Shown here: piece after piece, positions 1-39,256 of the stretch | Layout: each line of letters starts with the position of its first letter | How positions within the stretch are numbered: the stretch's first letter is position 1 | Assembly (NCBI GenBank): GCA_905478415.1 | Contig: CAJQIG010000002.1 | Coordinates: 71,573-118,833, forward strand | Direction: 5' to 3' | DNA from: an uncultured Patescibacteria group bacterium | Lineage (GTDB): Bacteria > Patescibacteriota > Microgenomatia > UBA1400 > PJMF01 | DNA length: 47,261 nucleotides | Made by a program: the position numbers and the translations under genes | Notes under the pieces: generated by a model | Database searches by the model: none | Told to the model about the DNA's origin: nothing | What the model saw: the letters and a program-made list of their open reading frames with translations, nothing else

Positions 1-6
1 ATCGAC

Positions 7-1845
7 ATGGTCCGAGATCCCAACTACCGTTCCCGAGCAGCTCTGACCAACCTTCTAACTGCAAACTTTGTCTCGTTTGCCGCCGAATATACTCGAGGTG
101 AAGTCATTTCAACCTTTGAAATGGATGTCTCTCCCTCAACGGGTCTTTTAGGAATGTTGGCTTCATATACCCAAGGTTTGTTGGGTATGGGCGAGAATTT
201 TGAGTCTAAACTCGAAACCAAAGGAAAATCAATCACCAGAGCTCAACTCGAAACAAACAACATGTATAAGCTCGATCAATGGGCAGTTGCAGCTCCCATT
301 GGCTCTCTTTTTATCTGGAACAGTCCTCCAGGTAAAGTTTCTGAAGGATATGCTGGGCTCAACTCACACTCGTTTATTTTTGCCTACGAAAAAACTTCCG
401 CAGATAAAGTGGTTCTTCATCAATATCGAACCTGGATGAATCTGGAACAACACCAAACCTTTCAAACTGCGCTCGATACCCAAAACGCTGAACTAAAAAC
501 AACATCAGTTCAAGACTCACACCAGATCATTAATAACACTGCAGTTCTCTCACCCAAAGACATTGGTTGTGAAAACGCTCAGCAACTTGTTTCTCTATTA
601 GAAAAAAATGCCTATGAGTCCTCAGATACTTGGAGGACAAAACCTAGTGAGATGCCCCAAATCGATGAGGCAGAGTATGCCACCTTTAGAGATTTTTTAT
701 TAAGCCTGTATATCCGAACTGTAGTGCCACTATTGTTAGCAGAAGTTCCCGAAGTAGAAAGCACTGAAGACCCACAGTGGCAAACTTTTATTGCTTCAAA
801 AAAATATACAGATTTGATCTCGCAACTGGACATTGCCTTTGGCATCCTTGCCTACCAGCCACTGGTAAAGTGGGTTGAAGCCGCAGATGAAACACCTCAA
901 AAATCAAAGAATATCCTTCAAAAGCTTTTCTCGAAATCTAACAAAGAAACAAACAAAATTACTGAGATGAGCCAATCTCAAATTGAAGAAGGTCTTATGA
1001 CCATGTATCAACTCCGGGTAGCCAAACTAAAAGGTGAAAAAATGGATGCTCAAAAAGTCTCTACTTATAACACCTTAGCCCAGGTGCTCCTTTCAACTAC
1101 GTCAAGGGGTCTCAGCCTTGGTCAGTGCGGCATTGGCACCTTTATTCCCACAAAAATGTTACAAACAGGCATGCCTCGAGCCCAGCTCGGGGCCCCACAA
1201 CTACTTAATCCCGGATTGGCAGCAGGTCTACCAGCTAAAGAAAAACTAGAGCTCTCTAACCATCTCAATACTCTCAGTTTTTTGCCGCTCGTACTTCCAA
1301 ATGGCGAAACCTGGTACATCAAAGCCCAGCACTACACTGAATATAAAACTTTCTTCACCCAAAACGAAGTTGAGTACTCCCCGCAAGGATTTCCCATCGG
1401 CCCCTGCGGCTGGGCACTTCGAGGTGATTCTCGAGGCGAAGATGAATTAGTGCTGACTGTTTCTGAATATAACCAACTCCAAGCATTGCAAGCCTTACTC
1501 TTACAGGACTTACTCGATAATCCGGAAGAAAGTTTTGATGTATTTGCCTCCAAATTGCTCGATTCTGCGCAGTCTGAATCAGAAAAAGTCGAGATTGCAG
1601 AAGTTATCGCACTGCTCAAAGAAGCCCTTAAAACTACGCTCGATATTGGGGACCTACTCTTTAGTGAGTTCTTTGATGCACTCAAGCTGTTTGCCCACCC
1701 TGTTTTGTCCGAGGTTGCTCAGAAAGTATCGCTCTCAAACTTTATTTTCAATCCGGAAGAAACTGCTTCGCAGGTTGTGGTTATTTATCAACAATCGACA
1801 CAAAAAATGCATGTAAATCCTGATAGAAGGTCAGCACTTCAGTAG
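7..1845 (+). CDS. hypothetical protein, 612 aa (possibly 5'-truncated by the window edge)
   Basis: Uninterrupted 1.8-kb ORF. The frame is still open at bases 1-6, so the real start may lie upstream. It ends 27 nt before the next co-directional ORF. No family motif recognised. Confidence 0.6.
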   Translation: MVRDPNYRSRAALTNLLTANFVSFAAEYTRGEVISTFEMDVSPSTGLLGMLASYTQGLLGMGENFESKLETKGKSITRAQLETNNMYKLDQWAVAAPIGSLFIWNSPPGKVSEGYAGLNSHSFIFAYEKTSADKVVLHQYRTWMNLEQHQTFQTALDTQNAELKTTSVQDSHQIINNTAVLSPKDIGCENAQQLVSLLEKNAYESSDTWRTKPSEMPQIDEAEYATFRDFLLSLYIRTVVPLLLAEVPEVESTEDPQWQTFIASKKYTDLISQLDIAFGILAYQPLVKWVEAADETPQKSKNILQKLFSKSNKETNKITEMSQSQIEEGLMTMYQLRVAKLKGEKMDAQKVSTYNTLAQVLLSTTSRGLSLGQCGIGTFIPTKMLQTGMPRAQLGAPQLLNPGLAAGLPAKEKLELSNHLNTLSFLPLVLPNGETWYIKAQHYTEYKTFFTQNEVEYSPQGFPIGPCGWALRGDSRGEDELVLTVSEYNQLQALQALLLQDLLDNPEESFDVFASKLLDSAQSESEKVEIAEVIALLKEALKTTLDIGDLLFSEFFDALKLFAHPVLSEVAQKVSLSNFIFNPEETASQVVVIYQQSTQKMHVNPDRRSALQ

Positions 1846-1857
1846 ACCCCCGCACCC

Positions 1858-1866
1858 TGGTATACT
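1858..1866 (+). promoter_or_regulatory. extended -10 box TGgTATACT, 6 nt upstream of ATG 1873 (leaderless-type promoter)
   Basis: TG at 1858-1859 and TATACT at 1861-1866. The spacer is ATCACC and contains no SD. Confidence 0.5.
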
Positions 1867-1872
1867 ATCACC

Positions 1873-4800
1873 ATGGCGGCTGAAGGAAATTCACCAGATT
1901 TAGTGCGTGTCGAAGACGTAAAACGTCTTGACCCTTCTTTGACCCTAAAACGCAACCGTTCTCAACTCGAAGCACTTGTAACTGAACTCCAAAAAGCTGT
2001 TCGAAATGACGAGCTTCAAGGAGGCTTAATAGTCAGGGCTCCACTGAGTGATGGCAGAATTCACGAACTCACTGTTTCCCATTCAACTCGAGAAGGTCTT
2101 TCGACTGAAGAGCAAAAGGATACTCTTTTTTGGTCTGATTATGCTGCCCTAATGCTCGACGTTGCTCAAAAGTTTAAGCTCACAGACTTGCGAGATGAGT
2201 TTTCACAGTATGACAAAACAGCTCGACAACTGGACACATGGGCCCATCAACCAAATGCTCCCAGCGAGACAGTTGATGAACTCACAATGTGGAATAATCG
2301 CTACAAAGCTGCAGAGCTCCTTCAAAAACTTTCAGGAGCCCTCTCAACAGGAATTACAGAGACTGAAGAAGAAGTTGTCGATGAAGAACCTGATAAAGAT
2401 GAAAAGACTACTGAATCAGAAGACGAAAAAGCAAAAAAACTACTAGCCGCCCTTGCAGCTCAAAAAGATGAAAGAGAAGCAAACTCAGCTGTTGTCACAG
2501 CTCCACCTGGAGGAGATGATGGTGACACCGCCCAACCAGCCTCAACAGAACCCAATCTCGAGCCAGACCAAAAAATCGATCCAAGCCGCCCACTGACAGA
2601 ACAACTTTCTCGAGATCAACTCCGCCAGTACAACACCAATGTTGCTTGGATGTCGAGCTTCACGCTCCTCCAAATTGCCGATAGCATGGGTGTTGATATT
2701 AATCAGCTTGATCCAGCCCTCAGAGCCGAAATCACCAACTATGCCACCGATTTTCTTGCCCGTGAAGGCGATATTAATGCACTTCTTAGAGGTAGTCCAA
2801 CAGCCCGCCTCCGATCTATTCGAGGTCTGCAACGATATCTAACAGAAAAAAGCTTTTTCGCTACACATAATGTCTCGATGGGCATTGTCCAAAAAACCGA
2901 TGACATTTTTGAGAAAAAAATTCACACAATTTTAGGTGACAACAATGGGGTAGTCGATAAAAATATCGAAAAAACAGTCGACGCTATTATTATTGCCCAC
3001 GGTGACAAAGCAGCAGAACTAATACAATCATTCGATAAGAAAAAAATTGAACTTATCTTTGGACTAGAAACATATAACCTTCAACCAGCTCAAATTGAAG
3101 CCTTTAAAAGCTCACTTATTTCATATGCTCAAGTTCGTATTGTTGAAATTGTTCTCCATACTCAAGATGAAGCTGTTAAAGATGGTCTCGTCACTGATAC
3201 AAATCCATCAGAACAATCGGCTGAACAACTCGCATCCCAAATTAGTAGTGTTAGAGCCACCATTTCTCAACATTCCTCTAATGATGATGAAAAAGGTGAG
3301 CTTACCGCTGATGCCACTACCCATAAAACAGGTAGCACAAGTAAAAAAATCACGTTTGCACTTGGCCAAAATGAGAAAATTTTTGGATCTTACTGGCGCA
3401 GCCTCAGTCCAGAACTACAAGCTGTAGCACTCGTTTCACTTGGGGCAGGACATCTCGTTAAGCAACCCGGTGACCATCCCCCTGGTGGCTACGAAATGCC
3501 AATTAACATCGCCGAGTTTAACCCAAGCGTATTAGGTAAATACGCCAAGGCGGTAGAACAACAGCAAAAAATATATGCTTCCATTGAGTTGGAAATGGCC
3601 CAAGAGATCTTTGAATATAATGTCGCCGTTGAACGAGCTGAAGTCTTGGCCATGAACATGCAGGCTGAGTACATCAAACAAAACGAGATGGTGCTTCGAC
3701 TCCAGATGGCACAAGAAATTGCTTTAGAACAAGCCAGTCTCCAACAAATGATGACTACTGAGTCTGCCCTCGAAGAACCTCAACGACAAACTGACTCTCC
3801 GAGCAACAAGCTTAGTAAAACCATGCGTTCTGTGGGACGTAAAAAATCTGCTAGTGCTGCTGGAAGTCAAGCTAAAGAGTTAGCATCAAAAAAACTTAAT
3901 ACTGCAGTGGCTGGTGCAACTCAAAAAGCACTCGGAGCAATTCCAGGTGTCGGTGCCGCCTTGGCTGGTGGCCACATTGCTCTTTCTAAGATGATTGGTG
4001 AAAAAAACACCAATAAGCTCATGCTGTTTCTGGGAGGAGGAGCTGCTGCTGGTATTGGCTATGTGGTTGCTAAAACACTCCAGGCACTCCAAACTCTTGG
4101 TGGCATGATTGGAGGAGCCGTCGGGGGGTTTGCTGGATCATTTTTAGGAATTGGTGGCACAGTTGTCGGATTCATTGGAGGCGCAAACCTTGGTGCCGCT
4201 GCACAAAACTGGCTAGCCGGCATCTTTGGAAAAGGCGCTGGAGCCAGCACAACTTCATTTGGATCGAGTGGACTTGGAGGAAGTGTTCTTTCGGGAGGTT
4301 CAAGCCTCCCCACGCTCTCTGCTCCGTCAGCCGCGAGTGTCGCCCAAGGAGCAACAACCGTTACTAATGCCGCGGGAAATGTAGTTGGAGGAATTACTAA
4401 AGCAGTTGGACAAGCTACTCAATCGCTTCCCAGTGCATCGGCTGTGGCAACACAGCCACTTGCTTCTACCCCATTTTTAGAAGGACTCAAAGCTGCCTCT
4501 CAGGCTGGAGCAAAACTTATTTATAGCATTCCCTTTATGTCGGTCATATTAGGAATGAGTATCCCAGCACTCTACACTATTATTGTTTTTCTGGTGATTA
4601 TGGGAGCATTTTTGGTACCAATGCCGTTTACTATTAACTCAAGTAATCCCTCAATTTCTGAGTATGCTCTTATCTCTAAAACAGCATCTCCAGAAGAAAT
4701 TGAAAATAATGTTGAAGAAGACATTACTTATGTTATTAACATTGTCCCCAAATCGGGGTATCAACTTGAAATTAAGCGTGTTGATGATGAGTTTTTAGTT

Positions 4801-5598
4801 CTTGGTGGAGATGCAACTACTCCAACATCCCCGCTGTCTCTCACCTCTTTTGAGGCTGGAAAGTTCTCTTCTCGCCAGGAAGCTGAATATACCGTAACCC
4901 TTTCTGGTGAAGATGCCCTTGTTATTAACACAGTAACTTTTACTGTCGATGTTTTTGATTCCAGTGGAAAATTAGTAACTCAAGGTGAAAGCATTAGCGC
5001 TCTGGGCTTAGTAATTATTGGCGACCCTCCAATTGGTTGTTTTGAATTTGCTCCAGCAGGGATAACTACAAACTACGAAGGTGGCTCAAATACATCCATT
5101 GAGTGGAACCAACAAGATATTGTCAAGTTTTTAAAAGCCTTTATTAATCGAGTTGGCACTAACCCGCAATATCTATCACTCCTCTGTTCAGAGGGTGATA
5201 TTACTGTTCACAAGTGGCCAGCCCACCCAGAACACTTTTGGGGGTGGCAAGTGAATGAAAATAAAATAGGTTTTTACGCAGAGTTCTTTGATGCCAGTAC
5301 TCAGTGGATGGAGTACACATTGGTTCATGAAAGTGGCCACTTAATTAATGATAGAAACCCGGGACTTCAAAACCAGTTTACTCAAATTCAAACAGATGCA
5401 GGCTGCTTCACCTACCCTTTCCCAGGCAGATGCAGTGAGTCTGAAGCTTTTGCAGAAGCCCTTGTTGATTATGTTGTTTGGCAAACCCACAGCTTTAGCT
5501 TTGAGGGTGTGTGGACGGGAGTATTCCCATTCAAGACAATGTACCCATCAGAGTATGCATGGATGCAAACAAATATATTTGGAGGAATCGAGTACTAG
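1873..5598 (+). CDS. large membrane protein with a glycine-zipper block and a C-terminal HExxH (zincin-like) domain; T4SS-associated by context
   Basis: 1241-aa ORF with an acidic, coiled-coil N-terminal half. A Gly-rich GxxxG block (IPGVGAALAGGH ... GGMIGGAVGGFAGSFLGIGGTVVGFIGGANLG) lies at nt ~3920-4300. A hydrophobic segment (IPALYTIIVFLVIMGAFLV) lies at nt ~4560-4620. HESGH is at 5326-5340, followed by the acidic stretch SESEAFAE. Confidence 0.8.
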   Translation: MAAEGNSPDLVRVEDVKRLDPSLTLKRNRSQLEALVTELQKAVRNDELQGGLIVRAPLSDGRIHELTVSHSTREGLSTEEQKDTLFWSDYAALMLDVAQKFKLTDLRDEFSQYDKTARQLDTWAHQPNAPSETVDELTMWNNRYKAAELLQKLSGALSTGITETEEEVVDEEPDKDEKTTESEDEKAKKLLAALAAQKDEREANSAVVTAPPGGDDGDTAQPASTEPNLEPDQKIDPSRPLTEQLSRDQLRQYNTNVAWMSSFTLLQIADSMGVDINQLDPALRAEITNYATDFLAREGDINALLRGSPTARLRSIRGLQRYLTEKSFFATHNVSMGIVQKTDDIFEKKIHTILGDNNGVVDKNIEKTVDAIIIAHGDKAAELIQSFDKKKIELIFGLETYNLQPAQIEAFKSSLISYAQVRIVEIVLHTQDEAVKDGLVTDTNPSEQSAEQLASQISSVRATISQHSSNDDEKGELTADATTHKTGSTSKKITFALGQNEKIFGSYWRSLSPELQAVALVSLGAGHLVKQPGDHPPGGYEMPINIAEFNPSVLGKYAKAVEQQQKIYASIELEMAQEIFEYNVAVERAEVLAMNMQAEYIKQNEMVLRLQMAQEIALEQASLQQMMTTESALEEPQRQTDSPSNKLSKTMRSVGRKKSASAAGSQAKELASKKLNTAVAGATQKALGAIPGVGAALAGGHIALSKMIGEKNTNKLMLFLGGGAAAGIGYVVAKTLQALQTLGGMIGGAVGGFAGSFLGIGGTVVGFIGGANLGAAAQNWLAGIFGKGAGASTTSFGSSGLGGSVLSGGSSLPTLSAPSAASVAQGATTVTNAAGNVVGGITKAVGQATQSLPSASAVATQPLASTPFLEGLKAASQAGAKLIYSIPFMSVILGMSIPALYTIIVFLVIMGAFLVPMPFTINSSNPSISEYALISKTASPEEIENNVEEDITYVINIVPKSGYQLEIKRVDDEFLVLGGDATTPTSPLSLTSFEAGKFSSRQEAEYTVTLSGEDALVINTVTFTVDVFDSSGKLVTQGESISALGLVIIGDPPIGCFEFAPAGITTNYEGGSNTSIEWNQQDIVKFLKAFINRVGTNPQYLSLLCSEGDITVHKWPAHPEHFWGWQVNENKIGFYAEFFDASTQWMEYTLVHESGHLINDRNPGLQNQFTQIQTDAGCFTYPFPGRCSESEAFAEALVDYVVWQTHSFSFEGVWTGVFPFKTMYPSEYAWMQTNIFGGIEY

Positions 5599-5625
5599 TG
5601 GCACTTAAGCCAGAAAAAAAACTAT

Positions 5626-6255
5626 ATGCCAAACGCAAAAAAGCACCTCAATCAAGCCTACGAAGAATCTAAAATTACCCAATCAGGAAAATCAAAAAAA
5701 ATATATTGGTTTATTTTAGGAACGTTAGCAATACTGTTTGTAATTTCGGCAGTTATTACTCAGTTTTTACCTATCGATGAACCTCCTGTTCAACAAAATA
5801 CTTGGGAAGGCGTTACTCCTGGTTATAAACTCACTCAAACAGTCACTGCTCAGCTAGGTTCTCCAGTAGAAATAAAGAAGTTGGCAGGAGAAAAACAACA
5901 GCTGTCATACAAATCAAACGACTTTAAAAGCTACTATAATGAAGTTGTTATTTCCAAAGAAGGAAACGTAGAATTTATTAAAACTCCAATAGCCTATGAT
6001 ACGAACCATACACTCACCAACTACACCGTACTCTACGGTACTCCAGATTTAGAAAGATATGCTTCAGAAATAAGTTCTGCTCTCAAAGCTCATGTCTTTT
6101 TAGAGGAAGGACTTGTTATCATTGCAAATAAAAAAACTGATGTTGTCGAAGCTATTTGGTACTTTGAGCCTACAACTGAGGATGTGTTTTTAAGAACACT
6201 AGGAGAAAAGTTAACCAAAGAACCCAGTCAGCCAGAAGCCTTTCCAGGATTATAA
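5626..6255 (+). CDS. bitopic membrane protein, 209 aa; T4SS-associated by context
   Basis: One N-proximal TM helix (IYWFILGTLAILFVISAVITQF) followed by a soluble domain of ~150 aa. It starts 27 nt after the previous ORF. Confidence 0.7.
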   Translation: MPNAKKHLNQAYEESKITQSGKSKKIYWFILGTLAILFVISAVITQFLPIDEPPVQQNTWEGVTPGYKLTQTVTAQLGSPVEIKKLAGEKQQLSYKSNDFKSYYNEVVISKEGNVEFIKTPIAYDTNHTLTNYTVLYGTPDLERYASEISSALKAHVFLEEGLVIIANKKTDVVEAIWYFEPTTEDVFLRTLGEKLTKEPSQPEAFPGL

Positions 6256-6396
6256 CTACTTTTCACTCCACTGACTTCCTTCACCTAGCACCAAGCACCA
6301 CTTTCCTGTTATTATGGTACGTAAGACTTATTGAGAAGTAAGTAGTTTTTTGCTTGCCTCACAAAAAAAGTATTCAGAAAGTAGTGACTGCCCTAC

Positions 6397-7605
6397 ATGA
6401 GAGAACACCCGATACCTCAAGATATCACCGGCTATAAGTTCCACATAATTGGAAGTATGACTCTTAAGCAATTTTTAGAAATTGCTATTGGTGTGATTGT
6501 TGGCGGCATTATCTATGCATCTAATTTACCAGGAGCAGTTAAGTTTCCCTTAATCCTTGTTGCCGTAGGACTTGGTGCAATGGCAGCCTTTTTACCAATT
6601 GAGGAGCGCCCGCTTGATCATTGGATAACTGTTTTTATCAGGAGTATGTACAAACCTACTCAATTCTTTTGGAAACGAGAACCTCACATTCCCGAGATCT
6701 TCAGCTTTACTCCAAACTTAAACACCACTGTTCAAGAGGACGAAGTTAACCTTGGACCAGTAAAAAAAGAACGAATCAGAGAATACATGACTTCTGTCCC
6801 AAGTACCACTGATCCTTACGCATTCGATGCTGATGAAGTTTCTAGAATGAGTGCTATTTTAGGTTCTTTTTCATCAGTCACTACCTCAAAAACAACGATC
6901 ACTTCAGCCCAAATTGCTCAAAAACCTCAGCTGGGAGTTCGAGTCAGAAATTTCAGACCTCAACACCAAGAGCAAGTGGTCTATGAAAATCAGACAACAG
7001 CTACTCAAGCGACAGCTGTTCCTACCGGTGCACGTGTTGTTGAAGAACAAGTTGGAGCCAACGCAGATCTGACCGAAATGTATGCGGAGCGCCAACAACT
7101 CTCAAAACAACAAAAAAGCGCTGATCAAGTGGCAACCGAAATTTCCATTCCAGAAACCGAAAACATCCATATTGTGGACCCCGCCACACTAGCTCAACAA
7201 GAAGAAAATCAAAGCGCGGCAATGGTACAAAGTGCAAACAACATGACTTTTATGGAGAAGACCGAGGATGGCACTGGGTCAGATACAAAAGCAACAGAAG
7301 CTGCTGCCTTTAATGTGAATCTCCCCTTTCCTGAAGCACCAACAGAACCAAACAAACTGGTGGGAATGGTTTTAACGAAGGCAAATGACCTCGTTACCAA
7401 TGCAATTGTGGAAGTTTTGAAAGCTGATGGAACCGTAGCTCGTGCGGTCAAGACAAATGCTCTTGGTCAGTTCTTTATCACCACCCCACTCGCCAACGGC
7501 AACTACACACTTGAAATCGATAAAGATGGGTTGACATTTGAACCGCTCACGCTAAGTTTAGATGGAACCGTAGTGAAACCAATAGAAATTAGAAGTCTCA
7601 GTTGA
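6397..7605 (+). CDS. PrgI/VirB3-like T4SS membrane protein fused to a carboxypeptidase-regulatory-like beta-sandwich domain
   Basis: The N-terminus HPIPQDITGYKFHIIGSMTLKQF plus two TM helices matches my recollection of the PrgI family. The C-terminus (LVGMVLTKANDLVTNAIVEVLKADG..GQFFITTPLANGNYTLEI) has the CarboxypepD_reg-like pattern. Confidence 0.6.
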   Translation: MREHPIPQDITGYKFHIIGSMTLKQFLEIAIGVIVGGIIYASNLPGAVKFPLILVAVGLGAMAAFLPIEERPLDHWITVFIRSMYKPTQFFWKREPHIPEIFSFTPNLNTTVQEDEVNLGPVKKERIREYMTSVPSTTDPYAFDADEVSRMSAILGSFSSVTTSKTTITSAQIAQKPQLGVRVRNFRPQHQEQVVYENQTTATQATAVPTGARVVEEQVGANADLTEMYAERQQLSKQQKSADQVATEISIPETENIHIVDPATLAQQEENQSAAMVQSANNMTFMEKTEDGTGSDTKATEAAAFNVNLPFPEAPTEPNKLVGMVLTKANDLVTNAIVEVLKADGTVARAVKTNALGQFFITTPLANGNYTLEIDKDGLTFEPLTLSLDGTVVKPIEIRSLS

Positions 7606-7641
7606 GACAAAGGAATAAACCAGTTAAGATAGAAGTACTGC

Positions 7642-8991
7642 ATGCCCGAAAACACACTTCACTCTACCACTCAAAAATTTCTTGATATTTTCGATATTAC
7701 TAATAATGTCGTAATTTTAAAAAATGGAACTGCCTCAATAATCATCCAAGTTGATGCTATGAACTTCGGACTGTTAGCCGAAGAAGAACAAGACAGCATC
7801 ATGTACGCCTATGCTGGACTACTGAACTCTCTAAACTATCCCATCCAGATTATTATTCGTTCTCAAACAAAAGATGTCACTGGCTACCTTCAAATACTCA
7901 AAGACCAAGAAGATAAGACTGCTTCCCGGCCACAGCAACAAAGAATTCGTCGCTACCGTGAATTTGTAACCAACTTAATTCGAGAAAGAAATGTTCTTGA
8001 TAAAAAATTCTACGTCACCATTAGTGCCACGCCACTTGAAGTTGGATTACTCGCCCCACAAAGTTTTGTACCAGGTCAATCTGAAGCACAAATAACCCCA
8101 GAGCAAAGAGCCACCGTTCTCGAGAAGGCTCGCAATTTGCTCGAACCAAAACGTGACCATTTAATTGCACAATTTTCTCGGATAGGTCTCTTTTCTCGAC
8201 AGCTCACCACCCAAGAAATCATTCAGTTTTTCTACCTAAGCTACAATCCAGAGGCATCTGAAGGACAACACATTGCCGACTCTAATAACTACACAACCCC
8301 ACTCGTAACCGCTGGGGTAGAAGGAACTACCATGAACGATGCTCCAATCCCTGCAATGCCGTCACCGGCTCCTGTTGCAGACACGCAACCAGCACAAACC
8401 CCAATGCCTACAGGTCCCGTTCCAGCACCAGCTACAGTCCCACCGCAACTCACTGATACTCCAGTAGCTCCACCAGTTGAACCAATCGTCGAACAAACAC
8501 CAGCTGGAGAATCTATGACTACTCCTTCCACTGCTGGATATACACCAACCCAAATGCCAGCCCAACCAACTACTCCTGCAGCACCACCTGCTCAGCCAGC
8601 TACCACAGAGCCAACGGCTCCTGAGAAACCAACTGTTTCAGCACCTGTTCAAACTCAAACACCAGAACCAATACAACTTGAGCCAACAGCTCCAATTGTC
8701 AAACCAGATATTCCTAAAACTCCTCCAGCTAGCCCTGCTCCAGCTCCAGGCCCCACGTTAGACTCTTCAAAAGGAGAAAGTGATTTGCCAAAGCCAACAC
8801 TTCCCATGGACCCTCCAACGCCAAATCCTACACCTGAAACCCAAACACCAAGTGCTGTTATTGAAACAGCAGAAATCGAGCCTGTGGTACTGCCACCTTC
8901 AGAACCCACTGATACATCTTCACAAAAAACAGAAGAGGCTGTTACTCCAGCTCAGACAGGAACTGACCTACCGCCACTACCAGAAATTTAG
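7642..8991 (+). CDS. T4SS-associated protein with a globular N-domain (~215 aa) and a ~235-aa Pro/Thr/Ala-rich tail
   Basis: 449-aa ORF lying directly between the PrgI-like gene and virB4. The N-terminal pattern FLDIFDITNNVVILKNGTASIIIQVDAMNFGLLAEEEQDSI resembles the N-terminal non-ATPase domain of Gram-positive VirB4/PrgJ-type proteins. That resemblance is from memory and is unverified. Confidence 0.6.
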   Translation: MPENTLHSTTQKFLDIFDITNNVVILKNGTASIIIQVDAMNFGLLAEEEQDSIMYAYAGLLNSLNYPIQIIIRSQTKDVTGYLQILKDQEDKTASRPQQQRIRRYREFVTNLIRERNVLDKKFYVTISATPLEVGLLAPQSFVPGQSEAQITPEQRATVLEKARNLLEPKRDHLIAQFSRIGLFSRQLTTQEIIQFFYLSYNPEASEGQHIADSNNYTTPLVTAGVEGTTMNDAPIPAMPSPAPVADTQPAQTPMPTGPVPAPATVPPQLTDTPVAPPVEPIVEQTPAGESMTTPSTAGYTPTQMPAQPTTPAAPPAQPATTEPTAPEKPTVSAPVQTQTPEPIQLEPTAPIVKPDIPKTPPASPAPAPGPTLDSSKGESDLPKPTLPMDPPTPNPTPETQTPSAVIETAEIEPVVLPPSEPTDTSSQKTEEAVTPAQTGTDLPPLPEI

Positions 8992-9003
8992 TAAGATACA
9001 ACA

Positions 9004-11004
9004 ATGCCTGACCTAAGCTCATTACTACCATTTGGAAAAAAGAAAAAAACTGATTCTACGGCTGATACTAGTCCTGAAGCCGTAGCCCTTCACAAACAAG
9101 AGCACGAGTTAGAAAAACTCAAAGAGTTTTCTAGAGGTTTGGTGACCATCCAAGATATTATTGCTCCAGAAGCAATTGAGGTCGATTTTACCTTTCAAAA
9201 AATAAATGAGACCTTTACTCGCACACTTTTTGTAGCCGGATACCCTCGGTCAGTGCCAGCTAACTGGCTCTCACCTCTTATTAACTTTCCGCATCAGATT
9301 AATGTTTCAATGTTTGTCTATCCGGTTGATTCTGGAGAAATTCTTGATAACCTGAAACGAAAAATAACAGAAATGGAGGCTGAAATTCAGTCTGATTTGC
9401 GTGCCGGAAAAATTAGTAACATTAACACTGAGGTTAAGCTCGAAGATGCCCGATACATTCGAGAAGAATTAGCAAAAGGCTCAGAGCGCTTCTTCCAGTT
9501 TGGCCTTTATGTGACTATTCAAGCCAAGGACAAGGAAGAACTTGATAGAGTCACTAAAGCTATTCAATCTTCTTTAGGATCACTTTTGATTGTTTCAAAA
9601 AAAGCTACGCTCCAAATGGATGATGGCTTTAAGTCAACACTACCAATGGGTGTCGACAAGCTCCAGGTTACTCGAAACATGGATACAACATCACTCGCAA
9701 CAACTTTCCCCTTTACTTCTAGTGAGTTAACTATGGAAACCGGCATTGTATATGGCATTAACGAGCATAATGATTCACTGGTTATCTTCGATCGCTTTAA
9801 GATGGAAAACGCCAACATGGTCATCTTTGCTAAGTCTGGTGCTGGCAAGTCATATACGGTGAAGCTCGAGATTCTTAGACAGCTCATGTTTGGGGCAGAA
9901 GTGATTGTCCTCGACCCAGAACATGAGTACGAAGACCTTTCAGTCGCTGCCGAAGGTGAATATATTAATTTTACCTTTAACTCTAAAGCCAAAATTAATC
10001 CTTTCGACTTATCAAATCTCTATGAAGAGGGTGAAAACGAGTTGGGACAAAAGATTATTGGTCTCCATGGATTGTTGAAAGTCATGCTTGGTGAAATGAC
10101 TGCACAACAAGACGCACTCCTTGATCGAGCACTTGTAGCAGCCTACAAAGCCAAAGGTATTACACCAGATCCAGCCACCCAAACAAATGAACCACCCCTT
10201 ATGGAGGATGTCTATAAAGCTTTGATTGGTATGGAAGATGGCGACGCTAATGATATTGCTGCTCGACTTGAAAAATTCATCACTGGTTCGTTCCGCGGAA
10301 TTTTCGACCAAAAATCAAACATTAACATTACTAACCAGCTCACCGTTTTTTCAGTGAAAGAAATGGAAGAAGGACTCCGCCCGATTGCCATGTACATGAT
10401 TTTGGACTTTATTTGGACTCGTGTTAAAAAAGACCTCAAAAAACGAATTTTAGTTGTTGATGAAGCCTGGTACTTTATGAAGCATCCAGATTCAGCTTCG
10501 TTTATCCACTCAATGGTCAAGCGTGCTCGAAAATACTACTTAGGAATTACCACTATTACCCAAGATGTCGAGGATTTCTTGCATAATGATTACGGTAGAG
10601 CCATTGTGACCAATGCTTCGATTCAGTTCTTGATGAAACAATCTACTGCATCTGTGCCAATCTTGTCAGAAACCTTCTATTTATCTCAAGGTGAAAGACA
10701 ACTTCTTGTTACGGCCGATGTTGGAGAAGGTATTTTCTTTGCTGGACAGAACCATGTGGCTCTCAAAGTTGTTGCTTCTCCAGAAGAACACGAGCTGATC
10801 ACCACTAACCCTGAAGAAATGTTTAAGCGCCAAGAAGACAAAAAAGCACTTGATGACGCAGTTGCCAAACCTGCACCACTACAACAAAAACCACAAGAAC
10901 CGGTCGCTCAACAAAAGCTCCAAGAAAAAATGCAATCAAAGCCTACAGAGCGTTCTTCGCAAAATTTATATTCTATTGACGACTACGTTCCGCCTGAAAA
11001 ATAA
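9004..11004 (+). CDS. virB4: VirB4/TrsE/PrgJ-family type IV secretion ATPase
   Basis: Walker A AKSGAGKS (GAGKS at 9838-9852), Walker B ILVVDEAWYF, and the N-domain motif AGYPRSVPANWLSPL. It starts 12 nt after the previous ORF. Confidence 0.85.
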   Translation: MPDLSSLLPFGKKKKTDSTADTSPEAVALHKQEHELEKLKEFSRGLVTIQDIIAPEAIEVDFTFQKINETFTRTLFVAGYPRSVPANWLSPLINFPHQINVSMFVYPVDSGEILDNLKRKITEMEAEIQSDLRAGKISNINTEVKLEDARYIREELAKGSERFFQFGLYVTIQAKDKEELDRVTKAIQSSLGSLLIVSKKATLQMDDGFKSTLPMGVDKLQVTRNMDTTSLATTFPFTSSELTMETGIVYGINEHNDSLVIFDRFKMENANMVIFAKSGAGKSYTVKLEILRQLMFGAEVIVLDPEHEYEDLSVAAEGEYINFTFNSKAKINPFDLSNLYEEGENELGQKIIGLHGLLKVMLGEMTAQQDALLDRALVAAYKAKGITPDPATQTNEPPLMEDVYKALIGMEDGDANDIAARLEKFITGSFRGIFDQKSNINITNQLTVFSVKEMEEGLRPIAMYMILDFIWTRVKKDLKKRILVVDEAWYFMKHPDSASFIHSMVKRARKYYLGITTITQDVEDFLHNDYGRAIVTNASIQFLMKQSTASVPILSETFYLSQGERQLLVTADVGEGIFFAGQNHVALKVVASPEEHELITTNPEEMFKRQEDKKALDDAVAKPAPLQQKPQEPVAQQKLQEKMQSKPTERSSQNLYSIDDYVPPEK

Positions 11005-11146: not shown

Positions 11147-11155
11147 TTTTTGCAT

Positions 11156-12733
11156 ATGTCTTCTTTGCCAGATGGAGTTACAACTGCTCAAGTACAAAAA
11201 ATATGGAAGAGTGTTTGTGCTGAGTTACAGCTTCAGCTATCCCCCGCTGTTTATAACACTTGGATTGTTTCTAACCCCCTTACTAGTTTGGTTTTTCTTG
11301 ACGATACGCAAGCACTGGCAACAATTACGAGCCCTACCGCTTTCCACTCAACAAACTTGAAGAAAAATCTCCACTTACAAATCAAACATTCTCTCGACAT
11401 ACACACTACTAGGAACTGTAATATCGAGTATCGAATTGGCGACCCGAGCTTAGCTTTTGAAACACCAAGCTCAGGGACTGTTAACAACCAAACAGCACCA
11501 GGATTTGGAAGCATTAAGACAGACCTCTATCCCGAACAAAAACCCCAAGTACAGCAGCAGTCACAACAAAACTACTCACACCAGATTGGACACAACCAAG
11601 AACATCAAAATCAACAAACCACTTCACCTCGAGTGGAAGATCTTTTTTCTGAACAGTCACTTTCTTCAGCACAGAGTGATCGGGTTGGAGCTATCTCGAG
11701 AAAAATTGGTCTTAGAAATGACTTTACATTCGAGACATTTGCCGTTTCTACCACTAATGAAATGGCTCATGCGGCTGCTACTGCCGTCTCAAACAGACCT
11801 GGAAATGCCTATAATCCTCTCTTTCTCTATGGAGGAGTTGGGGTTGGAAAAACCCATCTCATGCACGCAATTGGTAATAATATTTTAAAAAACAATAGTA
11901 ACTGTCGCATTATTTACTCGACTGGTGAAGAGTTTACCAATGAAATTGTCCATGCAATTCGAAACAAAAAAGCCAATGTGTTTAAAGGGAAATACAGATC
12001 TGCAGATGTGCTTCTTGTTGATGATATTCAATTTATAGCTGGTAAAAATGCTGTGCAGGAAGAATTTTTCCATACCTTTAATGCACTCACTAAACAACTC
12101 AGCCAAATTGTCCTCACTAGCGACAGGCCGCCCCATGAAATGAACCTTCTCGAGGACAGACTGCGCTCTCGTTTTGAAGCAGGACTGATGATAGATATTG
12201 GGCAACCTTCGTTTGAACTTCGGACAGCTATTTTACTCGTCAAAGCAAAAGCTGCTCGCATTGATATTCCTATGGAAATTGCTAAAACCATTGCCTCTCA
12301 AGTAGAGAGTGCTCGAAAAATTGAAGGTATCATCACAAGTATTAGGTCTGAAGTGGAACTGAAACGCCGAACAATAACTCCAGAACTTATTCAAGAGATC
12401 CTCCGAGTAGAGATCACTGAAAAAAGACCAATGATTAGAGTTACTCCTTCAGAAATTATCAGAACCGTTGCAAATCACTACAAATTTAAGCAAACTGCTA
12501 TTAAGGGAGCTCGGCGTTCAAAGCCATTGGTCACGGCGCGCCATATCGCTATGTACTTACTCAAAGAGGATCTTTCTCTTCCACTCACGGAAATTGGAAA
12601 GTGGTTCTCAAACCGTGATCACACAAGTGTTTTGCATGCCGTTAACAAAATAAATAAGGAAATGGCTATTAACGATCAAGTTCGTCAAGATATTTCGGCA
12701 CTACGAATGACTTTGACTGCTATATCAAGATAA
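11156..12733 (+). CDS. dnaA: chromosomal replication initiator DnaA
   Basis: AAA+ Walker A GGVGVGKTHL, LLVDDIQF, a C-terminal DNA-binding helix region (RDHTSVLHA) and a Gln-rich domain I-III linker. I prefer ATG 11156 to the TTG at 11150. Confidence 0.95.
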   Translation: MSSLPDGVTTAQVQKIWKSVCAELQLQLSPAVYNTWIVSNPLTSLVFLDDTQALATITSPTAFHSTNLKKNLHLQIKHSLDIHTTRNCNIEYRIGDPSLAFETPSSGTVNNQTAPGFGSIKTDLYPEQKPQVQQQSQQNYSHQIGHNQEHQNQQTTSPRVEDLFSEQSLSSAQSDRVGAISRKIGLRNDFTFETFAVSTTNEMAHAAATAVSNRPGNAYNPLFLYGGVGVGKTHLMHAIGNNILKNNSNCRIIYSTGEEFTNEIVHAIRNKKANVFKGKYRSADVLLVDDIQFIAGKNAVQEEFFHTFNALTKQLSQIVLTSDRPPHEMNLLEDRLRSRFEAGLMIDIGQPSFELRTAILLVKAKAARIDIPMEIAKTIASQVESARKIEGIITSIRSEVELKRRTITPELIQEILRVEITEKRPMIRVTPSEIIRTVANHYKFKQTAIKGARRSKPLVTARHIAMYLLKEDLSLPLTEIGKWFSNRDHTSVLHAVNKINKEMAINDQVRQDISALRMTLTAISR

Positions 12734-12752: not shown

Positions 12753-13012
12753 TTATCCACGATTGTGGATAAAGTCGTGGATAAAGTGGGGAAAGGATAG
12801 TGCATAGTTGTTAACAAAAAAGGGTTATGTGTATAACTTTGTAAAAACTATTCACAGTGCTCAGTGTTTTGCAGATAAGATATTCACACTAGACCTTGGC
12901 GAGTATCCACATATAATTAACACTAGGTTTCTTGAGGTGTATTGCTAGTTATGCACGATTTTGGCACTACCTACTACTACAACTACAAGTTATATATATA
13001 CATATAGTTAAG
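12753..13012. promoter_or_regulatory. candidate oriC: DnaA-box cluster plus an AT-rich element between dnaA and dnaN
   Basis: The DnaA-box 9-mers are TTATCCACg at 12753-12761, TGTGGATAA at 12764-12772 (perfect match, opposite orientation) and cGTGGATAA at 12776-12784. Further boxes are cTATtCACA at 12848-12856, aTATtCACA at 12880-12888 and gTATCCACA at 12903-12911. The AT-rich run TTATATATATACATATAGTTA lies at 12990-13010. Confidence 0.75.
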
Positions 13013-24427: not shown

Positions 24428-25040
24428 CGAGGAAACTCCGGACAGTTCATCCATTGGAGCGAAGCGATAGTGTCCGGGGATGAACGCCTCATAGCACCGA
24501 AGGTGCTATGATGTCATCATGAAAACCCGGAAGTTAAATCATAGTGTGTATAAACACCAATATCACTTGGTATGGGGGACGAAATATCGTCGGAAATTTT
24601 TCAAGAAGTATGTTGGAGATGAATTTGAACATCTTCTATACGAATTAGTTAAAAAGAAGTATCCAGATTTATATATCGAAGCGGTTAATACAGACCAGGA
24701 TCATGTACATATACAGATAGAAATACCACCAACATATGCAGTGTCAGACGTAGTAAAGCGAATAAAATGGCATAGTAGTGTGTACCTCAAGAAGAAGTTC
24801 AAATTTATCGATAGAATGTATATAAATGGAAACATTTGGGGTGTGGGATATTACTCATCAACCATAGGATTGGACGAAGAAACAATTAGAAAATACATAG
24901 AATATCAGGGGAAAGAAGAAGTCCTCCAGACACCGAGTCTATTTGAATAAAATTTTCATGAGAACTTGACCTTTAGGTCATTGCGAAGCAAATAGGAAAC
25001 CCCGGACATTGGCGTAGCTGTCCGGGGAGGACGTCATTTT
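24420..25040 (+). mobile_element. IS200/IS605-family insertion sequence (tnpA only); boundaries approximate
   Basis: A Y1 HUH transposase gene is flanked by similar, same-orientation subterminal hairpins. The left one is AGGAAACTCCGGACA..TGTCCGGGGATGAACG (24430-24486). The right one is AGGAAACCCCGGACA..TGTCCGGGGAGGACG (24994-25033). Confidence 0.75.
24519..24950 (+). CDS. tnpA: IS200/IS605-family transposase TnpA (Y1 HUH)
   Basis: Motifs YKHQYHLVWGTKYRRKFF, HUH (DHVHIQIEIPP) and a catalytic-Tyr region (WGVGYYSSTIG). The length is 143 aa. Confidence 0.92.
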   Translation: MKTRKLNHSVYKHQYHLVWGTKYRRKFFKKYVGDEFEHLLYELVKKKYPDLYIEAVNTDQDHVHIQIEIPPTYAVSDVVKRIKWHSSVYLKKKFKFIDRMYINGNIWGVGYYSSTIGLDEETIRKYIEYQGKEEVLQTPSLFE

Positions 25041-29238: not shown

Positions 29239-29403
29239 TCCCAGACTTATTGCGTCTCGATTTTTTTGAGGTGCGATCTTCTCTTTCTTTTACCCTGGTG
29301 CCGTTACTGGTGCTGTGCGGTGATGTTTGATTGAGATGTCTTTAACAGTTAAAGAGAAAAAATATAACCTGCACATCATGTGCAAAGGAGGTCTGAAAGC
29401 CCC

Positions 29404-31332: not shown

Positions 31333-31344
31333 GAGGATGAATCC

Positions 31345-32142
31345 ATGATGACTTTTATACTTTGGTTTATAAGATTTTTAGTTTTAGTGGTAGCAGTTGC
31401 AATGGTTCGAATGGCCTTTGTATATTGGTATCGTCGCAATAGTACCAGCCCTTTGGCTGTGTTACTCAGAGAAAAGTTGTTTTTTTTGCCTTCTGGTTTT
31501 TGGCCAACTCCACTTGTGGATGACGGCCCAACTCTAACAGAGTTAATTGAAGAGCAGGATGAAGAACTCGATCCTGAACGACAGTTGTTAAAAGCAGAAA
31601 AAGGACATTCGTTTGTATTTAATTTTGTTTCCCAAACTGTGGTTGGCCGAGTGTCAACACAGCGGATGGAGCAAGAAGTACAACGGAACAACTACCCTTG
31701 GCACGATGTGCCCGGTGAAAGAAACCAATTTGTCTTTGTTGACGGAAATCAGGCCTTTGCGTATTATCCATTTGGGGAGCGCGGCCGACCTGTTTGGTTT
31801 TTCTTAGAACCAGAAGATGCGTCAGGCCTTTGGGAGTATTTCAAAGGATCTGATACAGAACCTGGCCCCGCCAGAAAATTTGGAGCAAGTCGTCAGTTAG
31901 GTACTGTCACTTTTACTTTGTTTGGTAAAACCTGGAAGATGAAAGACATTGGGATGAACTCATTCCGTGTCGAATCTGGGCGGAACCTAATTATGAAAGG
32001 AAATGGGCGTTTTGCTCATTTGGTTGCTGAACAAGTTGATGGAGATGCCGTTCTGTTTTTTACCCATATCGAAGAAGGTGAGGGTTACGACGGCGTTTGG
32101 ATTGGTGAACAGGCAGATATGGACTTTTTGTCTGATTTGTAG
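31345..32142 (+). CDS. membrane protein, 265 aa, with a possible DUF4178-like C-terminal domain
   Basis: An AGGAGG SD at 31331-31336 overlaps the upstream stop codon. The N-terminal TM helix is FILWFIRFLVLVVAVAMV. The DUF4178 call rests on weak recollection only. Confidence 0.7.
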   Translation: MMTFILWFIRFLVLVVAVAMVRMAFVYWYRRNSTSPLAVLLREKLFFLPSGFWPTPLVDDGPTLTELIEEQDEELDPERQLLKAEKGHSFVFNFVSQTVVGRVSTQRMEQEVQRNNYPWHDVPGERNQFVFVDGNQAFAYYPFGERGRPVWFFLEPEDASGLWEYFKGSDTEPGPARKFGASRQLGTVTFTLFGKTWKMKDIGMNSFRVESGRNLIMKGNGRFAHLVAEQVDGDAVLFFTHIEEGEGYDGVWIGEQADMDFLSDL

Positions 32143-32254
32143 GTCAAAGTTTTTTTAAACTAGTTTTGTTTAGAGATACTGCACAGAATAAGACTTCCTG
32201 TTCAGTATGATTATCTTTGAAGTCTTAAAACTAACCATTTTTAGGAGAATAAAA

Positions 32255-33016: not shown

Positions 33017-33042
33017 CAATTTTTCTCTTTAACATGTAGTAC

Positions 33043-33076
33043 AAGCCCTTGGTCATTACGATCAGGGGCTTTTTTT
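33043..33076 (+). terminator. canonical intrinsic terminator
   Basis: AAGCCCTTGGTC-ATTAC-GATCAGGGGCTT forms 12 bp including 2 G-U pairs. A run of Ts follows, to 33076. Confidence 0.85.
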
Positions 33077-35222: not shown

Positions 35223-36623
35223 ATGGCCAAACAAAAATCACTCTTTATTTGTCAGGAATGTGGCTGGTCATCTCCTCGTTGGTCGGGGCAGTGTGGCAGT
35301 TGTAGTGAATGGAACACGCTGGTCGAAGAAGTTGCCGAAGGTGGTGCCATTGCAAAACAAGCTAAAAAAGCCACAAAAAGAGAAATGGCCAATTCTTTGA
35401 TCTCTTTTCCAGAGGTGGAAGCACTCAGCGGCGCAAAATCGCGTTTTTCTACAGGAATTGGAGAGATGGATCGTGTTTTGGGTGGTGAAAAAGGCAACAA
35501 AGGCATGGTTCCCGGCGCAGTTATGCTTATTGGAGGCGAGCCAGGAATTGGTAAGTCAACAATTCTCACCCAAATGTTAGTCACTATTTTAAAAGAGCAA
35601 ACAAAGCAGGGGGGGAGTCAAAAAAAACTACCACCGCTCATGTACGTGAGCGGGGAAGAGAACCCCTCACAGATAGCCCTGCGGATTGAACGCATCGCAG
35701 AAACAAAACTGACTCCAGACCAGCAGGCTCGTTTATTGTTTGTAACCTCTACCGATGTCGATGTTATTGTTGGTCACATGGAAAAGGAAAAGCCCGCACT
35801 GGTAGTTGTAGATAGTATTCAAACCATTACCACGTCAGAACTAACGGGTGTGGCTGGTAGTGTCGGACAAGTGCGTGAGTGTACAGACAAAATAACTACT
35901 GCCGCCAAGCGTTATCATATTCCCACCTTTTTAGTTGGTCATGTTACTAAAGATGGAAAAATTTCGGGTCCAAAAGTGCTTGAACACATTGTGGATGCAG
36001 TATTGGAATTAACAGGGGAGCGTACGGCAGATCTACGTCTGCTTAGAGCCATAAAAAATCGTTTTGGAGCCACTGATGAAGTGGGTGTGTTTCGGGTGCG
36101 CGAATTCGGATACGAATCAATTACAAACCCTTCAGAATTGTTTCTCACTGATGGGGACGCCCCCATTTCTGGATCAGCTACGGTTTGTATTGTCGAAGGA
36201 ACTCGTCCACTGTTACTTGAAGTTCAAGCCTTGGTTATTGGGTCACAATTAGCCATGCCCCGTCGAGTGGGGAGGGGAGTTCCCCTCTCAAGGATTCAAG
36301 TAATGGCGGCAGTACTACAAAAACACTGTCGGGTGCCGTTGGGAACGAATGATATTTTTGTGAGCATAGCCGGTGGGTTTGAAGTTAAAGAGCCAGCTAT
36401 TGATTTAGGTTTGGCTGTTGCTATTGCTTCCTCGCTCACAAATAAGAGTATTCCTAAAAGAACACTATTTGTTGGAGAAGTGGGTTTATTGGGAGAAGTA
36501 CGCTCGGTTAACTTGCTTGAAAGGCGCATCAAAGAGGCGAAAAGACTAGGTTTTGAACAAATAATTTCAAAAAAGACACACGACAGGGTTGAAGATATTT
36601 TGCGAGAGTTTAAACTGATTTAG
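35223..36623 (+). CDS. radA: DNA repair protein RadA/Sms
   Basis: A zinc ribbon (CQECGWSSPRWSGQCGSCSEWNT), Walker A (GGEPGIGKST), the KNRFG motif and a Lon-like C-terminal domain. Confidence 0.93.
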   Translation: MAKQKSLFICQECGWSSPRWSGQCGSCSEWNTLVEEVAEGGAIAKQAKKATKREMANSLISFPEVEALSGAKSRFSTGIGEMDRVLGGEKGNKGMVPGAVMLIGGEPGIGKSTILTQMLVTILKEQTKQGGSQKKLPPLMYVSGEENPSQIALRIERIAETKLTPDQQARLLFVTSTDVDVIVGHMEKEKPALVVVDSIQTITTSELTGVAGSVGQVRECTDKITTAAKRYHIPTFLVGHVTKDGKISGPKVLEHIVDAVLELTGERTADLRLLRAIKNRFGATDEVGVFRVREFGYESITNPSELFLTDGDAPISGSATVCIVEGTRPLLLEVQALVIGSQLAMPRRVGRGVPLSRIQVMAAVLQKHCRVPLGTNDIFVSIAGGFEVKEPAIDLGLAVAIASSLTNKSIPKRTLFVGEVGLLGEVRSVNLLERRIKEAKRLGFEQIISKKTHDRVEDILREFKLI

Positions 36624-39058: not shown

Positions 39059-39064
39059 GCATCT

Positions 39065-39073
39065 AGTATAGCA
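39065..39073 (-). promoter_or_regulatory. extended -10 box TGcTATACT, 6 nt upstream of the T4CP ATG
   Basis: The - strand reads CTGCTATACT AGATGC ATG, with no SD. Confidence 0.5.
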
Positions 39074-39256
39074 GAGTGGAAAAAGTCTGTAATAAGAAAA
39101 GAACACCCGTACTAAGTTTCGTGTTAACCTCACAAAAGTTATTCACAGTGATCGTGCTCATCACGCATATGTTGATAACTTTTGTATATATCTCAATAAA
39201 ATACGATAAAATAAAACTATGAGATGCTTTTTAATTTAACGAACTTAAACTATAGG

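Follow-up and report, generated by a model that had tools for sequence, protein, structure and literature searches.

Organization of the locus

The window analysed here is a stretch of 47,261 nucleotides (nt) from an uncultured Patescibacteria group bacterium (contig CAJQIG010000002.1, positions 71,573 to 118,833), whose first 11 kb carry six genes of a type IV secretion system (T4SS), called g1 to g6 in the following. The six open reading frames (ORFs) lie on the plus strand at 7-1845, 1873-5598, 5626-6255, 6397-7605, 7642-8991 and 9004-11004, with intergenic gaps of 27, 27, 141, 36 and 12 nt, and the start of dnaA, at 11150-11156, is found 145-151 nt past the end of g6, the virB4 gene. A co-directional, closely packed six-ORF block ending just before dnaA had been described in an earlier reading of the sequence alone (the original prediction), and its coordinates and gaps were reproduced.

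The locus most probably belongs to the known T4SS of the Patescibacteria clade, derived from the monoderm conjugation machinery (MPF-FATA class). The system itself was described before (2023, 2025), being found widely among ultrasmall Patescibacteria and proving essential in the single species examined, and the original prediction had correctly located a known and important T4SS. New here is that the outward-facing end of the giant protein encoded by g2 and its small neighbour, g3, are swapped as a unit between related genomes; no description of such a joint exchange was found in the literature searched. Genes and domains of the locus, with positions in amino acids (aa) where a protein is divided, are:

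1..1845, plus strand: g1, soluble protein lacking its 5' end in the window; accessory, lineage-restricted gene at the head of the operon
1873..3792, plus strand: g2 N-terminal region (aa 1-640), with a coiled coil and an acidic stretch of low complexity; presumably cytoplasmic
3928..4623, plus strand: g2 membrane region (aa ~686-917), Gly-rich hydrophobic helices with a Ser/Gly/Ala-rich loop between them, from the hydropathy scan
4654..5022, plus strand: g2 extracellular beta-sandwich domain (aa 928-1050), all-beta in the AlphaFold model
5023..5598, plus strand: g2 C-terminal HExxH zinc-peptidase-like domain (aa 1051-1241), with invariant motif residues
5626..6255, plus strand: g3, bitopic protein of 209 aa, short form, with an N-terminal transmembrane segment (aa ~27-47) and an ectodomain
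6397..7605, plus strand: g4, PrgI/VirB3-like membrane protein with a long C-terminal extension ending in a CarboxypepD_reg-like beta-sandwich
7642..8991, plus strand: g5, TrsD/TraC-like protein, VirB4 N-terminal-like at aa ~9-230, with a Pro/Thr/Ala-rich tail at aa ~231-449
9004..11004, plus strand: g6, VirB4 ATPase without an N-terminal domain of its own (NCBIfam CD1110, PDB 4AG5)
11150..12733, plus strand: dnaA, the next gene downstream of g6 in every case; context, not part of the T4SS

The ATPase unit and its membrane partner

The g6 product exceeds the cut-off of the NCBIfam model conju_CD1110 (E 9e-114, 381 bits against a cut-off of 325), which identifies it as a VirB4 of the monoderm (MPF-FATA) type. 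It also matches PDB entry 4AG5, the solved VirB4 ATPase domain (E 1.4e-44), and the Pfam families P-loop_TraG, AAA_10 and CagE_TrbE_VirB. The g4 product matches Pfam PrgI at aa 5-89 (32.8 bits, cut-off 27), and CarboxypepD_reg-like at aa 321-379 with 27.5 bits, below the cut-off of 32.3. The two identities originally predicted, a VirB4 ATPase at 9004-11004 and a PrgI/VirB3-like protein at 6397-7605, are borne out by the CD1110, 4AG5 and PrgI matches.

The 449-aa protein encoded by g5, which had been considered unplaceable, can also be assigned. Over residues 9-130 it is matched by TrsD/TraD (E 5e-4) and by VirB4 models in their N-terminal domain (NCBIfam VirB4_plasma, model positions 103-236, E 2e-9), and a precomputed Pfam match to PF26593, TraC-like, is available; the remaining tail of about 220 aa is rich in Pro, Thr and Ala. 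Judged by sequence, g5 is a TrsD-type free-standing copy of the VirB4 N-terminal domain. On the CD1110 model, which has 752 positions, g6 spans 174-734 and residues 23-128 of g5 span 15-120: because the two are complementary, VirB4 is in effect split. A few fragmentary ORFs aside, the TrsD-like orthologues of related loci range from about 220 to 760 aa; the length variation is apparently located in the proline-rich tail, and the first ~230 residues, 45-73% identical, are the only part that aligns.

Conservation in related genomes

A VirB4 scan, taking one genome per species, found 414 relatives; the comparisons reported here use the best 80 loci (70-89% VirB4 identity). The order PrgI-like gene, TrsD-like gene, virB4, dnaA, on one strand, is seen in 69 of the 69 loci showing all four genes, much more often than chance could produce, and the linkage to virB4, which the original prediction had named as its own test, is thus kept in the relatives. 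In 72 of 72 loci DnaA is less conserved than VirB4, the median identities being 79% for VirB4, 56% for DnaA and 43% for DnaN; a g4-type gene is present in 71 of the 80 loci, with a median identity of 44%. The fixed order, together with the stronger conservation of VirB4 than of DnaA, points to vertical inheritance under strong constraint and not to a mobile element.

Upstream of the PrgI-like gene are found a giant ORF (1100-1700 aa) and then a bitopic ORF (190-400 aa). The pair occurs in essentially every locus with enough upstream sequence, with hydrophobic segments in the middle of the giant proteins, and iterated hidden Markov model (HMM) searches confirmed the giant ORFs as one sequence family.

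The first gene is less constant. Its full length could be read from L081, a contig with identical genes which also shows the sequence upstream of the window: the protein has 642 aa as called and 650 aa as the longest ORF, the 612 aa originally given being due to an ORF cut by the window start. Three minus-strand genes precede g1 in L081, and the operon therefore starts at g1. In about 10 of 47 loci a member of the g1 family immediately precedes the giant gene. About 7 loci have in its place a protein of a second family (~570 aa), no more than marginally related to the first (hhalign 57%, E 1e-4), and in many others a divergent gene is located there. Sequence and profile searches gave no relatives of g1 in Pfam or PDB, nor in NCBIfam or PHROGs. 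Since g1 is patchy and g2 to g6 are widespread, the conserved core consists of g2 to g6.

The 80 loci are mostly titled Patescibacteria, Pacebacteria, Paceibacterota, Microgenomates or Woesebacteria, and the dnaA synteny is seen in nearly all that extend far enough. Titles such as "uncultured Pseudomonadales", "Limisphaerales" and "candidate division TM6" are attached to L002, L004-L006, L007, L062 and many others; these look like taxonomic mislabels, the loci carrying the Patescibacteria-type operon and dnaA synteny.

The giant membrane protein

Iterated HMM searches found the N-terminal region of g2 in 30 loci, always within the giant ORF at the same position, the membrane region in 44 loci and the beta-sandwich in 52. 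The hydropathy scan gave 3-5 hydrophobic segments in g2 and 1-6 in its orthologues, Gly-rich helices being scored poorly by this method. The whole protein found nothing in single-sequence Pfam, NCBIfam and PHROGs scans or in PDB sequence and profile searches, and an 18-sequence profile of the N-terminal region had no PDB relative. AlphaFold modelled aa 928-1241, from a shallow alignment, with a predicted local distance difference test score (pLDDT) of 70, as a beta-sandwich (block pLDDT ~65-91) followed by an alpha/beta domain. In Foldseek searches with this model the beta-sandwich part was matched, by generic folds only (Ig-like, cohesin, pilin-type), and the HExxH part was not.

The C-terminal domain contains the motifs HESGH (aa 1152-1156, nt 5326-5340) and EAFAE (aa 1191-1195, nt 5443-5457), and residues H1152, E1153, H1156, E1191 and E1195 do not vary among 13 sequences whose identity goes down to 28%. 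The 1241-aa protein, described originally as having no assignable motif, thus bears an invariant HExxH...EAFAE zinc-peptidase signature. Pfam returned weak zincin matches only (ATLF, M57, M78, M91, YgjP-like and DUF4344, best E 0.03-0.2), and no PDB sequence relative of the tail was found. Among 1.84 billion representative proteins the domain has 149 relatives, most of which match at or near the C-terminus of proteins of about 500-1700 aa. Pfam searches of the distant carriers gave no informative co-domains; a cadherin-repeat match on one of them was a false positive.

At the tail position, orthologues of g2 carry Peptidase_M23, in 7 of the 7 proteins tested at first and then in 24 of 35. The junction before the tail is marked by a conserved Gly-Cys-aromatic motif, which is GCF in the HExxH type versus GCW in the M23 type. 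In L009 (667-6429) the giant gene is split in two ORFs, of 555 and 1335 aa; in L004 (1628-6460) the M23 domain is internal (aa 1277-1351 of 1611), with about 260 further residues after it.

M23 enzymes are peptidoglycan endopeptidases, and T4SS operons usually carry a wall hydrolase. Because the HExxH domain replaces M23 in an operon of this kind, it is presumed to be a wall hydrolase as well, and we infer only that it may do the M23-type peptidoglycan job.

The small bitopic protein

A single hydrophobic segment near the N-terminus was predicted by hydropathy for the g3-position protein of nearly all listed loci. The family comprises a short form of about 200 aa, found in 12 loci, and a long form of about 330 aa, found in 47; the two share their C-terminal ~80 aa (hhalign 96%, E 1.5e-9). 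No Pfam family is shared by 61 g3-position proteins, a 13-sequence profile of g3 had no PDB match, and single-sequence Pfam, NCBIfam and PHROGs scans of g3 returned nothing. Its AlphaFold model (pLDDT 42) was discarded. The original description of the 209-aa protein as VirB8-like in topology only therefore stands: an N-terminal anchor and an ectodomain are seen, with no Pfam or PDB match. The possibility that the extra length of the long form is a relocated HExxH or M23 module was ruled out, hhalign probabilities being 0.1-0.2%.

As to the four proteins that the original prediction could not place, the 449-aa and 1241-aa proteins are now placed at least partly; for the 209-aa and 642-aa proteins the statement holds, no family or fold being detectable.

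Exchange of the giant protein tail together with g3

The type of the g2 tail and the form of g3 vary together in 59 of 59 loci: HExxH tails occur with the short g3 (12 of 12 loci), M23 tails with the long g3 (47 of 47). In a neighbour-joining tree of VirB4+DnaA+DnaN the HExxH loci are scattered, each beside an M23-type sister, and this interleaving rules out that the HExxH type is a single clade. Five HExxH/M23 sister pairs were compared. Their g4, g5 and g6 products are 45-90% identical and, where both g2 copies are complete, g2 runs collinear as far as the tail. Neither the g2 tail nor the g3 ectodomain can be aligned, g3 aligning at most over its membrane anchor. The interleaving of the types and the pattern of the sister pairs indicate that the 3' end of g2 and the ectodomain of g3 were replaced together several times.

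The g2 tail and g3 thus behave as a swappable cassette. Two types at least can be distinguished, the M23 tail paired with long g3 and the HExxH tail with short g3, and Saccharibacteria may have another, M15-like one. A functional pairing of g3 with the g2 tail, as partner, regulator or immunity protein, would be an attractive explanation of these sequence patterns. The hydrolase-plus-partner cassette and the orphan HExxH domain are regarded as modest leads.

Missing components and the distant coupling protein

No relaxase or integrase family was found among the ORFs of the window. A VirB2-like pilin was searched for in the 47-kb window and in the 6 kb upstream of it in L081: neither a PF18895 or PF04956 match nor a pilin-like small ORF was seen. 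The term "minimal" used in the original prediction may not apply: other classes possess VirB2-like pilins and a VirB6 homologue, and such genes could be located beyond the limits of the window. The following gene encodes the sole coupling-protein-like ATPase (type IV coupling protein, T4CP):

36620..39133, minus strand: T4CP-like ATPase (TrwB_AAD_bind, TraG-D_C); its link to the operon is conjectural

As originally noted, it lies far off on the other strand, 25.6 kb from the operon. The protein has a 370-aa N-terminal extension and no predicted transmembrane segment, which is unusual for a coupling protein. Its gene converges with radA, on the plus strand, with an overlap of 4 nt (35205-39133). 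Distant T4CP genes are common in Patescibacteria, and the T4CP of Southlakia epibionticum is not essential (PMC12102498).

Relation to known systems

Quinonero-Coronel et al. (2025; PMC12102498) described the VirB4 proteins of Patescibacteria as a monophyletic clade within the monoderm MPF-FATA class, and concluded that this T4SS was acquired once, anciently, and then descended vertically. According to the same paper TrsD is the most frequent partner, PrgI/VirB3 homologues are also found and relaxases are rare; in Paceibacteria and Microgenomatia the T4SS lies close to dnaA, dnaN and rnpA. VirB6 is scarce in Microgenomatia, VirB8 is hardly detectable and VirB1 is mostly unlinked to virB4. Arrays of VirB2-like pilins occur commonly in Saccharibacteria, where they are essential, and in abundance in Microgenomatia (PMC12102498). 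The present locus agrees with this description in its chromosomal virB4 beside TrsD-like and PrgI/VirB3-like genes, adjoining dnaA, dnaN, rpmH and rnpA, and in the lack of a relaxase and the distance of the T4CP gene. With the S. epibionticum cluster described next it also shares a very large neighbour that ends in a peptidase domain, in the window a putative cell-wall one.

In the saccharibacterium Southlakia epibionticum the T4SS cluster SEML1_0006-0019 is essential for epibiotic growth (Wang et al. 2023; PMC10633639), in agreement with the original statement that T4SS genes are important for the epibiotic life of Saccharibacteria. The companion statement, that the non-ATPase components remain undefined, is outdated for Saccharibacteria, for which Table S2 of that paper gives structure-based identities, and still fair for the lineage studied here. 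Besides VirB4, the table has entries for PrgI, NTF2-like and VirB6-like proteins, a hypothetical protein in the place of TrsD, six pilins and one lysozyme/CHAP protein (PMC10633639). It also lists SEML1_0007, a protein of more than 1100 aa beside virB4, with a DD-peptidase fold at its C-terminus that has M23 proteins among its structural neighbours (PMC10633639); judged by this description, it would correspond to g2 but bear a tail of yet another kind. Unlike the S. epibionticum cluster, the window has no VirB2-like pilin array, lysozyme/CHAP protein or recognisable VirB6, its giant gene is upstream of the PrgI gene and not beyond virB4, and the tail is an orphan HExxH domain, not M23 or M15-like.

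Several traits are shared with the conjugative T4SSs of the MPF-FATA class (Trs of pGO1/pSK41, Prg of pCF10, Tra of pIP501, CD1110 of CTn2): a VirB4 over the CD1110 cut-off, a separate TrsD-type VirB4 N-terminal protein, as in pGO1, a PrgI-type VirB3, the absence of outer-membrane components and an associated hydrolase, which in the window is presumed to act on peptidoglycan. PrgK of pCF10 also holds a LytM/M23-type domain. The system of the window differs from them in not being on a mobile element, in the lack of a relaxase, an oriT and an adjacent T4CP, and in its putative hydrolase, which forms the last domain of a giant, presumably polytopic protein and is not an SLT/CHAP protein; moreover, its PrgI protein has a 300-aa extension and its TrsD protein a 220-aa proline-rich tail. 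Of the stripped-down monoderm machine with novel parts that had been proposed, the derivation from a monoderm T4SS, with no relaxase or coupling protein nearby, is retained, and the novelty was overstated for a published system.

The g2 protein resembles the extended VirB6 proteins (PMC12857230) in being large, with several hydrophobic helices and big hydrophilic domains, and in its place within a T4SS operon; the likeness is architectural only, as g2 orthologues show no TrbL/VirB6 sequence similarity (0 of 35) and the helices are Gly-rich and of uncertain number. Similarly, the tail resembles zincins in its HExxH and in the downstream Glu-containing EAFAE, both invariant, but it stays under all family thresholds and is found almost only as the tail of giant proteins.

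Proposed working and alternative explanations

The best explanation overall, to which we assign a probability of about 75% for identity, parts and mechanism together, is that the locus encodes the Patescibacteria T4SS working as follows. The g4 protein would anchor the VirB4/TrsD ATPase at the membrane, and g2 would supply the membrane-spanning, wall-crossing part; the terminal peptidase of g2 would cut the cell's own or the host's peptidoglycan, allowing the machine to assemble or to reach the host cell, and g3 would act with this peptidase as partner, regulator or protector. The substrate would more likely be protein, or another macromolecule exchanged with the host, than conjugative DNA, a non-DNA substrate being favoured because there is no relaxase and the only T4CP-like gene is distant. 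The g1 gene would be a fast-evolving accessory.

A number of points weigh against this explanation. The 80 loci are the closest of 414, and conservation is thus shown only at a VirB4 identity of at least 70%. In the 47 kb neither a VirB2-like pilin nor a clear VirB6 was found, and parts of the machine may therefore be missing from the picture. Pfam TrbL/VirB6 matched none of 35 g2 orthologues at E <= 0.1, and the channel role suggested for g2 draws solely on its position and hydrophobic segments. The HExxH domain falls in no curated peptidase family, since its best Pfam E values (0.03-0.2) reach no threshold; the last ~70 residues of the g2 model, within this domain, have a pLDDT below 50, and peptidoglycan is suggested as its substrate solely by the positional replacement of M23. 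For g3 there is no usable fold model (pLDDT 42). The joint replacement of the g2 tail and g3 could reflect adjacency alone, in one recombination tract, and the function proposed for this lineage is read from genes alone.

A more specific form of the cassette idea regards the g2 tail as a "warhead" and g3 as its partner, the two being exchangeable within an otherwise vertical, probably essential T4SS and repeatedly replaced, perhaps tracking the chemistry of the host wall; the HExxH domain would then represent a new family of envelope-cleaving metallopeptidases and g3 its cognate regulator or immunity factor. We put this forward tentatively, as somewhat more likely wrong than right. Less probable, though to be taken seriously, is that the g2 tail and g3 form an effector/immunity pair, an HExxH or M23 toxin being released against the host wall and g3 protecting the producer. 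The strict co-variation of tail type and g3 form (59/59) and the repeated exchange of types between related genomes fit this idea, such co-varying exchange being typical of polymorphic toxin cassettes, but g3 is membrane-anchored and both of its forms share a C-terminal module, features that a structural partner fits equally well; no cleavage site or release mechanism was seen, and adjacency alone can explain the joint replacement.

VirB4 drives pilus biogenesis in classical systems, and the operon might mainly be an assembly motor for VirB2-like host-attachment pili, transferring no substrate. In favour of this are the VirB2-like pilin arrays, which Saccharibacteria commonly have and need and which abound in Microgenomatia (PMC12102498), and the tubular structures that a 2026 preprint reports at a host interface. 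The absence of a pilin-like gene from the 47-kb window and from the 6 kb upstream in L081, and the nature of the conserved partners, a giant hydrolase-tipped membrane protein and a bitopic protein instead of pilins, make this quite improbable. Only a little less doubtful is a machine importing DNA or RNA, like the Helicobacter ComB T4SS or the archaeal Ced system, which would feed a cell unable to make nucleotides. Patescibacteria lack nucleotide synthesis, radA and the T4CP-like gene are present in the window, g6 weakly matches CedB and CedD (E 1.6e-17 and 2e-8, far below the cut-offs), and the same preprint ties together feeding on host RNA, tubular structures and a monophyletic VirB4; on the other hand, no nucleic-acid binding or processing part is detectable in the operon, and in S. 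epibionticum the T4SS is essential, whereas neither comEC-dependent DNA uptake nor the T4CP is (PMC12857230, PMC12102498). The latter data separate the T4SS from classical competence, though perhaps not from another import route.

The idea that the operon is the remnant or the cargo of an integrative and conjugative element (ICE) or plasmid of Gram-positive type, integrated by chance beside the origin, is largely refuted, and we give it hardly any credence. It could draw on VirB4 being nearest to the CD1110 (CTn2-type ICE) model, on TrsD and PrgI being components of Gram-positive conjugative plasmids, and on an IS200-type transposase 13.5 kb downstream. Against it speak a fixed location and gene order, seen in 69 of 69 related species, and the stronger conservation of VirB4 than of DnaA, as do the lack of a relaxase or integrase family in the window, the T4CP gene 25.6 kb off on the other strand, the flanking genes, which are housekeeping or lineage genes, and the published conclusion of a single ancient acquisition with vertical descent (PMC12102498). 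The G+C content of the operon (0.40-0.46) overlaps that of the rest of the window (0.37-0.45), although it lies in the upper part of the range.

In the class to which the window appears to belong, the 2025 survey detected no VirB6, VirB8 or linked VirB1; the giant hydrolase-tipped protein and the co-varying bitopic protein beside PrgI, TrsD and VirB4 are candidates for these roles. The exchanged part is the outward-facing end, which makes host specificity and wall breaching testable ideas. Patescibacteria make up a very large part of the bacteria not yet in culture and spend their lives attached to other microbes, and theirs is the first T4SS shown to be essential for its owner.

Genomic context

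Downstream of dnaA, on the same strand, are found dnaN, rpmH, rnpA, yidD, yidC and jag. The cumulative GC skew turns at about 12-13 kb, and its minimum coincides with a cluster of DnaA boxes:

12753..12911, no strand assigned: likely replication origin (oriC), five DnaA boxes in ~160 nt of the dnaA-dnaN spacer; context

The origin beside which the T4SS module had been placed is thus real, given the skew turn and the five clustered boxes. The boxes include an inverted pair, 12753-12761 (plus) and 12764-12772 (minus), where the terminator scan also called a hairpin. In DnaA itself the N-terminal and AAA+ domains are separated by an insert of about 60-80 aa, of low complexity and rich in Gln, Asn and His. 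Promoter-like sites were not above those of shuffled sequences, and no convincing terminator was found within the operon; an Rfam scan of the window identified no RNA family.

In L081, the sequence upstream of g1 encodes, on the minus strand (2532-3965), two adjacent soluble proteins of 174 and 295 aa, likely paralogues, with a similar central and C-terminal region and no Pfam family. Beyond them is a gene of more than 1225 aa, also without a family.

The only mobile-element gene seen in the window is the transposase mentioned above, 13.5 kb from virB4:

24519..24950: IS200/IS605-type Y1 transposase (Pfam Y1_Tnp, E 9e-31)

A 127-aa ORF without family match lies just upstream of it, on the opposite strand. 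Further downstream, at 29380-34072, four consecutive plus-strand ORFs (650, 265, 269 and 312 aa) have no Pfam family, two of them with an N-terminal hydrophobic segment; they are directly preceded by genes for a solute-binding protein and a VanW/PG_binding_4 protein. The window also encodes a sortase-domain protein (40272-41054) and a separate LysM + Peptidase_M23 protein (44625-45734, E 1e-31); a housekeeping M23 enzyme is therefore kept, although the giant protein of the T4SS has no M23 domain.

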